A stretch of DNA of 64,000 nt, from the NCBI RefSeq assembly GCF_058153355.1, contig NZ_CM177019.1. The stretch is one strand, 5' to 3'. The notes beneath the pieces were generated by a model. It saw only the letters and a list, made by a program, of their open reading frames with translations. It ran no database searches and had not been told where the DNA came from. Positions 29,820 to 40,404 of the stretch are shown here, piece by piece; the stretch's first letter is position 1, and each line of letters starts with the position of its first letter. The translations under genes and the position numbers were made by a program.

Positions 29820-30150
29820 TTAATACCCCGCCGTTAAATCATCCACCAAGCGCGAGTCGGATGCGCCGTACAACTCACCATCCGACCCAACCATAATGCT
29901 TTGCGTGCTGCCCATCGCCTCATTCAGCGCCACTTTCTGACCTTTTGCATCCAGCAGCTTGAGCGTATCCGGACTAAACCCTTTTCAACACGCAGCTCGT
30001 CCGGCAACCACTGATAGTGGAAACGAGGCGCATTGGTCGCTTCGGCAACATTCATTCCACAATTGATGCTGTTCACCACCATTTGCAGCACGGTAGTGAT
30101 GATCCAGCTACCGGTAACAAAGTGAGTACATAAAGGCCATACTGTCACGA
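29820..30150 (-). pseudogene. ggt: Gamma-glutamyltranspeptidase 3' fragment (frameshifted, 5' end missing)
   Basis: Minus-strand peptides ...IITTVLQMVVNSINCGMNVAEATNAPRFHYQWLPDELRVEKG and, in another frame, ...DSRLVDDLTAGY* match the GGT C-terminus; fragment abuts the ISL3-like element. Confidence 0.7.
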
Positions 30151-31907
30151 ACAGTGCAAAAGTGGCTCTTCCGCAACCTGGGTGAAGATTTTCATGCCAG
30201 TGGACTCATTACCCTCCGCCTAAGTAGTTCAAGTCCGGCTCGACCATACATCTGGCGTATCAGCACCTTCAGGCGATTTACATGACCTTCGACAACACCA
30301 GTACTCCAGCGACTGCTGATTGCCTCACATATAGCCGCAGCATCAGCTTCCATCCCCGCAGCTACGCACCGAAGTTCTGCTGAGCCGCTTTCGTGGACCC
30401 GAGTGAACCAGCTGCTTAGCTGTGATTTATTTTAGGTTTTCAGAATACGGTAGAACTCGAGTACCAGTTGCTGCGCTATTTTCAACTCCGGTTCTTTTTC
30501 ACACATCAGACTAATAAATCGGAAAGCATAATTTTCTTCACCCCTGATTATTCTCCAGGGCATCAACCAGCGGCTTACCCGGGACACTGAAGGAAGTCTT
30601 GCGGCAGTAGTAACCGGTGGGATCCAGCCTTTACGCCATTTGGCAACAGCATCCCTGACGATGGTTTCACTGCCTGTAACCCCCCTGGCCACCATTTCCC
30701 GCCATATCCGGCCGGAGTTATAATTACCACATTCTCGTTGCTCTTTTAACCACTCCCTCCATGGGTCCAGAAGCCCTCGCTTTGGAGGCCTAGTTGACAT
30801 TTCAGGGAATGTTCCTGAACCCACCCAGCGACTGACTGTCACTCGCGACAGGCCTGTAATACGGGATATTTCCCTGAAACTACATCCCTTGTTATGCAGG
30901 GCCATAACCTCTGTCCAACGCTGATGCCGTTTTTTGCGGATGTGCTGTTTAAGGCGTTCCAGACGACGGAGCGATGCTACAGGCACAGATATTTCTGGCT
31001 CAGGTGATTTCTTCAGTGATAACTCTCTGACAACAAGACGTATCAGAGGCATATGTCTGTACATCATTCGTTCAGGCTCATCACCAATATTTTTTAGCAG
31101 GTGCCATCGATCGGCCACCTGTCTGGCCTGAGGTGCACCTTCACGTGCTGCTGTCGCATAGACTCCACTGCGATCACGCGAGACAACCTGTATTTCCGGA
31201 TATTTTCTGAACCAGGTCGCCAGCGTACGCTGATCACGGCCGGGAAGCAGGACGAGGGGACGGTGAGTATCAAGATTGACTATTAACATACCGCAGCAGT
31301 GGCCCCGATGCCACGCCCACTCATCAATACCGACATGAGGCGCGCCTGACTGTTTCGTCTCCGGGGTATTGATAACCCTGCGAAGAAGAGTATCAGCACT
31401 GCAACGGAGACCCGCTGCCGTTGCAGCCCGTTTTCCAGCCTCACCTCCAGCTATTAATCCCAGTTGACGTTGTAAATTTTGTAACGCCTGTGAAGACTGC
31501 TGGTGTGAACCGGCGAAGGGAGCAAGCGACTCGGCAAAAATTTTACGTGAACAAGCCGGGTTACGGCAGTACCAGTGGCGGACGGAAAATACAAGCCATA
31601 GCGTCTGCCCTGAGCAGGGTAGATGCTGTATCCGGCGCCGACGACAACTATGAACAGAGTCGCTACGCTTAAAGCATTCAGGACATTGTGCTGTTTTGCG
31701 TTTTCCGTGGAGATGGAGGGTTATACCGTCAGAGCTAATAATTTGTCGACTGCATCGCCATCCGCAAGGTAACTGTAGAAGTGTCTTAAGAGAGTGCATT
31801 GCGTTGCCCATAACTTAAAACAGCTTAGATCCTTGTTCGCCAGAAAGTTTCATCCATTTTCTTCCACCCAGGTTGCGGAAGAACCACTTTTCATCCGTCG
31901 TTGACAG
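30142..31907 (-). mobile_element. ISL3-family insertion sequence with about 43-bp imperfect terminal inverted repeats
   Basis: Ends ctgtcacgaacagtgcaaaagtgGCTCTTCCGCAACCTGGGTG (30142-) and its inverted complement ending at 31907; encloses the transposase ORF. Confidence 0.75.
30432..31811 (-). CDS. ISL3-family transposase
   Basis: 459-aa ORF with N-terminal zinc-ribbon pattern (CPECFKRSDSVHSCRRRRIQHLPCSGQ...RHWYCRNPACSRKIFAE) typical of ISL3 transposases. Confidence 0.8.
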   Translation of the reverse strand: MGNAMHSLKTLLQLPCGWRCSRQIISSDGITLHLHGKRKTAQCPECFKRSDSVHSCRRRRIQHLPCSGQTLWLVFSVRHWYCRNPACSRKIFAESLAPFAGSHQQSSQALQNLQRQLGLIAGGEAGKRAATAAGLRCSADTLLRRVINTPETKQSGAPHVGIDEWAWHRGHCCGMLIVNLDTHRPLVLLPGRDQRTLATWFRKYPEIQVVSRDRSGVYATAAREGAPQARQVADRWHLLKNIGDEPERMMYRHMPLIRLVVRELSLKKSPEPEISVPVASLRRLERLKQHIRKKRHQRWTEVMALHNKGCSFREISRITGLSRVTVSRWVGSGTFPEMSTRPPKRGLLDPWREWLKEQRECGNYNSGRIWREMVARGVTGSETIVRDAVAKWRKGWIPPVTTAARLPSVSRVSRWLMPWRIIRGEENYAFRFISLMCEKEPELKIAQQLVLEFYRILKT

Positions 31908-36151: not shown

Positions 36152-37012
36152 TGTCTGAGAACCACAGGCTGGCAGCAGAAAACCAGCCCTGTGGTAAAAT
36201 ACAGTAATAGCGGCGTACATCAGGCACGCCGCTCACTCGTCCACAGATCATATACGTCATTATACTGCGCGATAACGGAGGGCTTCAGCACCCGGTCATT
36301 TCTGAGCGGGTATGAATACCATTGATGATGCGAAGCAGCCACGGGCAGAAACGTTCTTCACAACCAGGTGCCTCCATCTTCACTGCAGTCTGAATGTGCC
36401 GGCTTGTTATCCACCAGAAATGGTATGCTCCGGTACATGCATACCCCGGAGACTATAAACGCACTGAATCATAGCCTCCCACCTCAGCAGGAGGCAGTCA
36501 GCTTTCAGGCGGAAAAACGTTGCAGTTAAAGATCGTGAGAATCGCTGTTTCGTTGCATAGCAACCCGAACAGTTGTAGTGAAACATTTTACCTGCATCAG
36601 CACATGGTCAGGCGCCGTCTGTATGGCGTGGAATACTGATGTTTCGGCTGATGGCAAGCCTCATTCTCTGTGGAAACAGGGGCGCGCATTAGCTTCTCAA
36701 CCAGAGAGTGTCACAAAGACAAATATTGCTGAAAATCGCATTCATCGTTCAGGCGTGAATGCCCGGAGACAAAAGCCGCTGTCCACACAGTCCCCCTCTG
36801 ACCTGAACAAAAAGCATACACACAACAGGCTCACCTGACCCCGAAAAACCATAACTTCAGCAATACCAGTGACACCAGCACGTTACCTCAGTGCCACATC
36901 TTCAGACCGCGATCAATCTGAAATGTGACTATCGGGGCAATATCCCTGCTTTGTGGTACACGATAACCAGAAAACATCCCCTGAACCGCCAGCCAGAAAG
37001 ACTGGCCACAAA

Positions 37013-38970
<1,958 letters not shown>

Positions 38971-40404
38971 AAGGGGTAAGCTGAAATCGTTTATGGATTA
39001 CATCGACATATGCCTGGCAGAGAATGTCCGGAATGACGAGGTTATCTTTGCGGAGATTAAGGCAATGGTATACGGGCCGACGTTCCATGCCGCGTTACTA
39101 CATTCAGCCCGGACGTAAAATGCGCCCGTCAAAAAGAACGGTTCGCTTCGAAACTCAGCCAGGATACCACCTCTCCGCCACACCCGAGAAGAAGTTGATA
39201 TGGTGGTTGCCGGACAACAGCGCTCCTGGATTGACTGCTGCATCACTCAACCACGCTGAATATCAAAGGAGAGCGTTACCGGTTAAAAGAGAAACGTAAA
39301 GCTGTGGTGATGACCCAAAACGCAACGCCTGTCAGTGAGGATGAAATGGTGAAAAGCGGACAGCATCAGTAACGGAAGTATCTTAGCGGGTACGAAAATG
39401 GCAGGATCGTGACATTGACAGAATATCTCCTGATCATCCTGAATGACTGCAGTTGCTGTAGAAAAGTAAGCTGTCTCCACCCACGGCACCACTTAACAGG
39501 CATTCCGTAACTTCCCCCAGACTTACTATGACGCATTATCGGTGCACTGAAAACGGGAGAGTGCGCTTAAAACCGCAGACCGCATGCGGGTGTTACTGCA
39601 TGACAGTCTGGCCGTATTGTGAGATGTCGGCAGGAACCGATGTCCGCGCAGGGGGGAACTTCCTGCAGTACCTGACGCTTCAAATGGTATTAACCGTAGG
39701 GTGTTGTTGGTTCCGGATCGCGGAAATGGGAGCACAGGTCTGCTACGGGGTGTACCTCTGACAGTATATCCGGCTCGCTCATCTGACAGCCTCTCTCCCG
39801 GAAAAGACCAAAAATGAGATCGTCTCCTCAACAGCAGAGAAGAGGTCTTGACAGACAGGCTACATTGCATACGATTTATGAAGAAAAAGACAGCAAATAT
39901 GGAGGTTATAGCGGAGAATACCCTACGAAATTCCTATGAAAAACGATTGAAAAAAATATCAAATTCGATTCGTTTTTATATGCTTTTTGGGAGCGTGGCG
40001 ATGACGAACTGTTGCATGTGCAGAGGAGAATGCACCCGGAAGCACCAGAATCATCCAGAAAGGCAGAACGATTACGCATCAAACCAGGAGACAGCAATAT
40101 CAAGGTAATATACTGATTTAAAATGAATTTACAGCAATACGTAAAAACATTTTTTACTTAAAGGAGACAGATGCGCTGAAGAGAGTGCAGGTATTTTTAT
40201 ATAAAAATGAGAAGTTTACGGGATGTATATCCGGCACACTATGACCGGAGAATATCAGTCAAGCTTAAAAAGACAATAAATACAGTGAGTTAAATACACA
40301 GAGAAAACGTAGTATCAGAGGGTACATCTGTAAGCGTCTTATCAGGACCGTCTGGCAAATTCCCGATGCTTTGGACAAAGTATCCACCACTAAATTAATA
40401 GTGG

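Follow-up and report, generated by a model that had tools for sequence, protein, structure and literature searches.

How an insertion sequence (IS) of one family comes to carry the ends of another is the question raised by a locus in 64,000 nucleotides of E. coli DNA (hereafter the window; contig NZ_CM177019.1 of RefSeq assembly GCF_058153355.1). The locus holds a 1764-bp unit consisting of an ISL3-family core between two 21-nucleotide (nt) tips that match the termini of IS100, a member of the IS21 family. The core is ISEc38, inactivated here by a stop codon. It encodes a single transposase with matches to Pfam PF01610 (DDE_Tnp_ISL3; 121 bits in an intact copy), PF14690 (ISL3 zinc ribbon) and NCBIfam NF033550 (259 bits, cut-off 180), and it is ~95.5% identical in nucleotide sequence to intact copies, with a 539-amino-acid transposase, that NCBI names 'ISL3-like element ISEc38'. 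Yersinia IS1661, a first guess for the element, was dropped, the DNA being that of E. coli and the element ISEc38. A genome paper lists ISEc38 coordinates that span exactly 1722 bp and calls the flanks AAAAGT/ACTTTT an 'inverted TSD' (target-site duplication; PMC6963479). It follows that the reference element comprises the GG...CC core without the tips. Within the searchable literature we found no explanation of this arrangement; the tips appear only as that unexplained entry in one table (PMC6963479). On balance, we consider it likely that ISEc38 came to lie between IS100 ends through targeting of IS21-family ends by an ISL3 subfamily, with replacement of the interior of the targeted element.

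The tips are IS100 DNA, external to the ISL3 element. The right outer 22 nt (31885-31906, minus strand; TGTCAACGACGGATGAAAAGTG) are identical at 22/22 positions to one end of the IS100 copy in the window (37013-37034), and the left outer 22 nt (30143-30164; TGTCACGAACAGTGCAAAAGTG) agree at 20/22 positions with its other end (38945-38966, minus strand). The difference between the two tips parallels the difference between the two IS100 ends, and no tip match with three or fewer mismatches arose in 100 dinucleotide-preserving shuffles of the window. These comparisons bear out the initial annotation, which had proposed that the outer ~22 bp at both ends match IS100 termini; the element that it placed at 30142-31907 is real, with one base too many on each side. 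An imperfect 43-nt inverted repeat is found at 30142-30184 and 31865-31907. Inside the tips are ISL3-type repeats (GGCTCTTCCGCAACCTGGGTG / GGTTCTTCC...) that begin with the family start GG(C/T)TCTT (GGCTCTTCCGCAACCTGGGTG / GGTTCTTCCGCAACCTGGGTG, at 30164 and 31885). The junction between tip and core falls after tip nucleotide 21, and nucleotide 22, a G, is common to the tip and the ISL3 repeat. Compared with IS21-family elements, the whole unit has TG...CA-ended repeats that match a family member, and it has just the outermost 21-22 bp instead of at least two direct repeats per end (L1-L2, R1-R2); unit positions 23-60 are no more similar to IS100 than shuffled sequence. The unit has no istA, no istB and no IstA DDE domain, and its interior encodes the ISL3 transposase alone.

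If the tips were a native part of the element, they would be expected to stay with the core. The 43-bp repeats could belong to the ISL3 lineage itself, a transposase with an IstA-like module binding the IS21-like outer part and cutting at TGT...ACA, which would make the element a true chimeric IS. The transposase does contain an IstA-type end-reading module, tips occur on relatives in several phyla, and BLAST matches between copies extend to the outer ends. Against this, the tips are equal to the ends of whichever IS21 relative is local. A Klebsiella/Enterobacter relative with 74% nucleotide identity (L004, L039) has tips TGTTACCAACGGTGCAAAACTG and TGTCAACAACGGGTAAAAAGTG, which are identical at 22/22 and 22/22 positions to both ends of ISSen3, a relative of IS100 (L224, a Klebsiella plasmid); the tips of a Citrobacter amalonaticus relative (L038) likewise match the ends of an ISSen3-like variant (L225) at 22/22 and 22/22 positions. 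Within E. coli, cores that encode an identical transposase are flanked by every combination of left (IRL) and right (IRR) terminal inverted repeat (IRL/IRR, IRR/IRL, IRR/IRR and IRL/IRL), and some tips are internally deleted. There are also cores with no tip or one tip (L014, L017, L028, L043, L230), among them relatives without tips (L028, L043), and further relatives have one tip (L033, L034). The same transposase lineage is associated with 5-bp duplications at the outer ends as opposed to 8-bp duplications at the inner GG...CC ends. Lastly, the initial annotation had named native 43-bp ISL3 repeats, with a chance likeness to IS100, as the finding that would overturn its claim; the reference ISEc38 is 1722 bp long and lacks tips (PMC6963479). 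The idea of native ends is thus largely refuted, and we regard it as very improbable. Among the identical-transposase E. coli cores, those of L016, L018 and L021 adjoin tips with short internal deletions (TGTCACGAACGG-ATAGT, TGTCACGAA-TAGT and TGTCAACGACGG-AAAAGT), which may reflect imprecise joining or junction repair.

We observed copies in which the core had moved on its own into an IS21-type end. In L017/L020, the core lies between direct 8-bp repeats (...GTGGATC ACTTTTCA, then the core from GG to CC, then ACTTTTCA TCCGTCGTTGACA). The left flank is IS100 interior sequence and the right flank corresponds to the outermost 13 nt at the right end of IS100, indicating that the target was positions 14-21 of that end. 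These loci show that the core was transposed by its own transposase with an 8-bp duplication, the duplicated target being repeat positions 14-21; hence, one junction always falls after tip nucleotide 21. The left flank of L017 matches IS100 at only ~25/28 nt, so that a full IS100 was rejected there in favor of a solo end remnant; L014 resembles a decayed copy of the same junction. In E. coli SMBL (L230), a full IS100 with istA and istB has lost its last 13 nt and is joined to the core at ...GTGGATCACTTTTCA / GGTTCTTCC (...CACTTTTCA / GGTTCTTCC), and this type of junction is found in 11 genomes (SMBL and ten others). An event of the same kind is seen in Rhodococcus koreensis (L047), where the duplication GTTTTTCA lies beside a tip. 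Distant relatives without tips (L056, L058, L066, L099, L100) have ordinary 8-bp duplications. Across ~29 enterobacterial contexts, a few ends lack a recognizable tip and none shows a clean 8-bp duplication at an ordinary site, a lack that a preference for the 8-mer alone would not be enough to explain. An Amycolatopsis eburnea copy (L050 2306-4046) has a long-ISL3 core with the 8-bp duplication TGAATTTC in a 21-bp near-palindrome, TGTCAG-TGAATTTC-GACGGCA, that is like a very reduced pair of IS21-type tips.

The arrangement is widespread. The element is present in 3393/5426 complete E. coli genomes, with up to 13 copies in some of them, as well as on plasmids and in further genera. Scanning genomes for the transposase identified this architecture in E. 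albertii, Trabulsiella, Citrobacter, Serratia, Tenebrionibacter, Pantoea and Enterobacter; in Rhodococcus, Microtetraspora, Nonomuraea, Sphaerisporangium and Microbispora, where the relatives have 30-37% amino-acid identity; and in Candidatus Regiella. No IS21 genes were found beside the Rhodococcus (L047) or Microtetraspora (L053) loci. In a metagenome scan, the actinobacterial tip TGTCAACGACGCTCGAA (TGTCAACGACGCTCGAATTTT) occurred in three kinds of locus: on genuine IS21-family elements with istA and istB, the end of IstB being ~112 nt inside the tip; on long-ISL3 cores, joined after nucleotide 21 (...CGAATTTT followed by GGCTCTGGCAC, versus ...CGAATTTT followed by GACCCCC in the IS21 element); and in numerous mini-IS21 elements, 34-90 bp long and bounded by 5-bp duplications. 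The position of the tip/core junction is the same in both phyla.

This distribution bears on the suggestion that the window unit is a local accident, in which one illegitimate recombination event within a pathogenicity-island region fused an ISL3 copy to fragments of IS100 ends, with no general meaning. The window copy, which has no duplication and lies among IS debris and a truncated ggt gene, would suit such an event; the same architecture in well over half of the E. coli genomes, on plasmids and in other genera, together with other IS21 partners in Actinobacteria and a junction always after tip nucleotide 21, refutes it, and we give it practically no credence. The recurrence from E. coli to soil Actinobacteria instead points to an ISL3 subfamily that seeks IS21-family ends. 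In the mechanism that we propose, the 'long' ISL3 subfamily would integrate at a fixed place in IS21-family terminal repeats.

Tips also occur back to back with no ISL3 core. The initial annotation had called for a search for such a unit made of IS100 ends, and one exists: a 47-bp mini-IS100 (TGTCACGAACGGTGCAATAGTG-GAT-CACTTTTCATCCGTCGTTGACA), flanked by the duplication CTGTC, in 67 complete E. coli genomes. It lies in a frameshifted IS3-family transposase gene, and all 67 copies are seemingly at one site. We ruled out that it is a footprint of ISL3 excision; its center, GTGGATCAC, is IS100 sequence and not ISL3 termini. Soil-type metagenome contigs from JGI (L104-L223; for example, L138, L144, L126, L155, L180, L190 and L122) contain mini-IS21 elements with two IS21-type tips back to back, some of which overlap through a GAATTC-like center; these have one repeat per end, compared with the two used by IstA in vitro.

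A candidate for the part of the transposase that reads the target lies within its catalytic domain. Residues 302-398 of the ISEc38 transposase are 36% identical to residues 9-98 of IS100 IstA and also match the NCBIfam IS21 model. The only PDB sequences that match this segment are those of IstA from IS5376, at residues 10-107 (8Q4D, 8B4H; E = 2e-10), in which two helix-turn-helix (HTH) domains, HTH-1 (1-39) and HTH-2 (55-104), bind and read the terminal repeats (PMC10122671). The insert interrupts the match to the Pfam DDE_Tnp_ISL3 profile, positions 1-135 of which align with residues 160-295 and positions 117-240 with residues 414-534. From this homology and the fixed position of the junction, we infer that the HTH1-HTH2 module is probably what reads the IS21 end in the target. 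The insert is old, being common to more than 2000 clusters of ISL3 transposases (50%-identity clusters of 530-560-amino-acid proteins, aligned over their full length). These full-length alignments, and the lack of any special likeness to the cognate IstA, led us to reject the view that the IstA-like region is a recent chimera specific to ISEc38 and tied to the tips.

We next consider how the units acquired the duplications at their outer ends. IS21-type 5-bp direct repeats surround 13 units, eight in Enterobacterales and five in Actinobacteria or metagenomes (Table 1). Five base pairs is the length for the IS21 family, as seen for the window IS100 (ACAAA) and ISSen3 (CTGAT) and, in vitro, for IS5376 (PMC10122671). 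When the flanks of one unit (L022) are joined with a single copy of the repeat, they are identical at 395/395 positions to an intact ISEc11, which represents the empty site; no empty site for L002 was found in the genome collection. The duplications would be either inherited from an IS21 insertion that was later converted, or generated by IstA/IstB moving the chimera as a non-autonomous passenger. One of the E. coli units lies in istA of ISEc12, another IS21-family element, with the duplication ATTAC; it is shared by mouse and bovine E. coli plasmids (L013, L023, L024, L025, L229). In the mouse-strain plasmids, recombination among three ISEc38 copies has separated the halves of ISEc12 istA and shuffled the tips.

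The second origin of the duplications can be extended to the whole population of units: the chimera would spread mainly as a non-autonomous derivative of IS100, moved whole by the IstA/IstB of IS100 in trans, with ISL3 targeting as only a rare founding event. This would account for the 5-bp duplications at all 13 sites and for the genomes with multiple copies. It is also consistent with the empty L022 site being an intact ISEc11; with the finding of no IS100 at the L022 and L229 sites in 5426 genomes; with the prevalence of IS100, which is present in 3143/5426 E. coli genomes and lies 5 kb from the unit in the window; with mini-elements of 34-47 bp that have the same tips and 5-bp duplications at many sites; with the ability of IstA to use two left or two right ends (PMC10122671); and with a left tip that carries the same two mutations at two separate sites, where the cores are 4.5% divergent. 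On the other side, in vitro, the purified IS5376 IstA requires each end to contain two direct repeats (PMC10122671), whereas the tips hold only the outermost one, and the ISL3 repeat, which we considered as a mimic of the second IstA-binding repeat of IS100, resembles that repeat no more than shuffled sequence does. Moreover, one unit (L226) is at the same site as an IS100, cores with an identical transposase have varied and damaged tips, and in each of three lineages with cores ~26% apart, the tips are an exact match to the local IS21 partner, which is hard to square with tips inherited with the core. We therefore treat spread mainly by IS100 functions as possible but rather doubtful.

Replacement of the interior in place, as our preferred explanation of end targeting proposes, is shown for one E. 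coli site. In two mouse E. coli strains (L226, L227), the 1222-bp left flank of the unit is shared with the IS100 of SMBL, and so is the left-end variant (...AAAAGTG). The common flank and IRL variant indicate that an IS100 once stood where the unit now lies and had its interior replaced; the two-tip copy there is an IS21-family element, or a miniature, with its interior swapped for the ISL3 core. By the most conventional of the presumed routes, with two hits, the core would insert into one end, a further copy would make a local hop into the opposite end, and the two cores would then recombine. In L021 (142-2869), a partial ISEc38 with a truncated, 315-amino-acid transposase directly precedes an IRR-type tip, after which comes another core, this one complete; the outer flanks are those of L018, so that two cores are nested or in tandem within one unit.

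Several observations weigh against this explanation or against parts of it. In all two-tip units examined, the 8-mers adjacent to the core are inverted and not direct (TGAAAAGT ... ACTTTTCA or ACTATTGC), and therefore no single standard integration into a mini-element produced them, which leaves the two-tip route as a reconstruction. For the same reason, simple insertion with an 8-bp duplication into a 47-bp mini-IS100 or a 34-bp overlapping mini-IS21 is excluded. Of the earlier proposal that the ISL3 element inserted into a miniature built from IS100 ends, the IS100 origin of the ends stands; simple insertion does not, the 8-mers being inverted and the central 5 bp of the mini-element replaced. 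Single-hit intermediates look rare, with one junction type in 11 genomes compared with units in ~3000; this rarity is ill-suited to a slow two-hit route and leaves room for a one-step reaction. That no IS100 was seen at the L022 and L229 sites in 5426 genomes counts against replacement in place there. The single repeat in each tip speaks against IstA/IstB as the source of the 5-bp duplications. The IstA-like insert resembles the cognate IstA no more closely than it does a distant one, and many members of the long-ISL3 subfamily, all of which share it, are at ordinary sites without tips. Finally, the window copy's own history cannot be read, duplications of both lengths being absent: the initial annotation had reported no 8-bp duplication, which we confirmed, and there is no 5-bp duplication either (flanks ...GCCATAC and GATGTGA...).

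A more specific proposal centers on the module. The ISL3 subfamily may have captured the HTH1-linker-HTH2 head of IstA and used it to home into IS21 repeats, with one head engaging each end of the victim; the interior would be replaced in a single reaction, and the chimera would then ride on the victim's ends. We put this forward tentatively, as a conjecture more apt to fail than to hold in full.

In the window, this widespread arrangement is represented by a copy that is rearranged and dead (Table 1). That copy is 100% identical to copies in S88, 55989 and O104:H4. The transposase frame runs on past the TAA to its normal stop at 30192, and RefSeq describes the identical S88 copy with an 'internal stop'. 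E. coli Z1322HEC0010 (L228) has the unit at the same ggt/zinc-ribbon site with an intact transposase gene and one change in the right tip (...GAATAGTG), indicating that the stop codon in the window is a later mutation at that site. The ggt fragment ends ~30 bp to the left of the unit, in the same context as in L228; because there is no target duplication, the ggt/unit junction is the product of a rearrangement, not of a clean insertion. The window IS100 (37008-38971 including its ACAAA duplication) lies 5 kb away, and S88 has the identical ISEc38 region with no IS100 at this place, so that the IS100 insertion is strain-specific. This IS100 represents the type that donated the tip sequences, and it may serve as a helper.

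Table 1. Features of the window (positions in its own numbering), the mini-IS100 example, and the 5-bp duplications found around tip-core-tip units.
Feature	Position	Strand	Details
Tip-core-tip unit	30143-31906		TGT...ACA ends, 1764 bp; 21-nt tip + 1722-bp core + 21-nt tip
Left tip, outermost 21 nt of IS100 IRL-type terminal repeat	30143..30163	+	TGTCACGAACAGTGCAAAAGT; 2 differences from window IS100 IRL
ISEc38 core, 1722 bp	30164..31885	- (transposase strand)	ends GGCTCTTCC...GGAAGAACC, GG...CC
ISL3-type terminal inverted repeat, 3' side of transposase gene	30164..30186	+	
ISL3-type terminal inverted repeat, 5' side of transposase gene	31863..31885	-	GGTTCTTCCGCAACCTGGGTGGA
ISL3 transposase frame, 539 codons when intact; pseudogene here	30192..31811	-	in-frame TAA at 30432-30434 = codon 460
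Insert in ISL3 DDE domain, codons 302-398, homologous to IstA HTH-1/linker/HTH-2	30618..30908	-	
Right tip, outermost 21 nt of IS100 IRR-type repeat	31886..31906	-	TGTCAACGACGGATGAAAAGT; identical to IS100 end at 37013
Gamma-glutamyltransferase (ggt) pseudogene fragment without N-terminus	29820..30112	-	RefSeq annotation of the identical region of strain S88
Complete IS100	37013..38966	-	istA 37858-38880, istB 37079-37861; 5-bp duplication ACAAA at 37008-37012 and 38967-38971
Mini-IS100 example (E. coli SMS-3-5)	L011 2501-2547		NC_010498.1 4867603-4867649
5-bp duplications, Enterobacterales			L002 GTTGT, L018 CCTCC, L022 CCTCC (L018 and L022 at different sites), L229 ATTAC, L026 GCTCC, L031 GGTGC, L037 GTTTC, L038 TGGTG
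5-bp duplications, Actinobacteria/metagenomes			L053 CGTGG, L057 GACGA, L060 GGAGT, L116 ACCCG, L206 ACCAT

The unit resembles several known systems in part. Like the reference ISEc38, the window core is 1722 bp long with GG...CC ISL3-type repeats and an ISL3 transposase; the reference stops at GG...CC, whereas 21-nt IS100 tips flank almost every copy, and the window copy has a premature stop. With IS100/IS100kyp and ISSen3 of the IS21 family, it shares the outer 21-22 bp of both ends, TG...CA termini and, at many units, 5-bp duplications, but it lacks istA and istB, has one repeat per end where the IS21 family has at least two, and contains an unrelated IS as its interior. Miniature inverted-repeat transposable elements (MITEs), Tn3-derived inverted-repeat miniature elements (TIMEs) and mobile insertion cassettes likewise have the terminal repeats of a family without its transposase, together with the duplication length of that family, and the cargo-free counterparts here are the 47-bp mini-IS100 and the 34-90-bp mini-IS21 elements of soil metagenomes; the units described here differ in having as cargo a complete autonomous IS of another family, apparently self-placed by end targeting, and one repeat per end. 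Integration into short repeats has precedents: IS1397 and ISKpn1 insert into repetitive extragenic palindromic (REP) units and bacterial interspersed mosaic elements (BIMEs), and IS30 and IS911 target sequences that resemble their own ends. These elements share with ISEc38 site-specific integration at a fixed position of a short repeat that is recognized by the transposase. In the case of ISEc38, however, the target is the terminal repeat of another IS family, the candidate reader is homologous to the transposase of that family, and the interior of the targeted element can be lost.

ISEc38 is among the commonest IS in surveys of E. coli and Klebsiella genomes, and its real genomic unit is 1764 bp long, with IS100 tips. 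Annotation pipelines that seek 8-bp duplications will misread ISEc38 and will miss both the 21-nt IS100 tips and the 34-47-bp mini-IS21 elements. Our data suggest a specific interaction of two transposon families, in which one family inserts at a fixed nucleotide within the ends of the other, is able to erase the genes of its target and comes to carry those ends. If this is true, it bears on the dynamics of IS100 in Yersinia and E. coli, and on rearrangements in those virulence plasmids and islands in which the two elements are clustered. Should the IstA-type module embedded in the transposase prove to be the reader, ISEc38 would be a natural case of a DDE transposase retargeted by domain capture, with a bearing on the evolution of target specificity and on engineered targeted transposases. 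And if the module was captured as a homing head, then, from Proteobacteria to Actinobacteria, the long-ISL3 subfamily would prey specifically on a second family of transposons and afterwards pass for one of its members.

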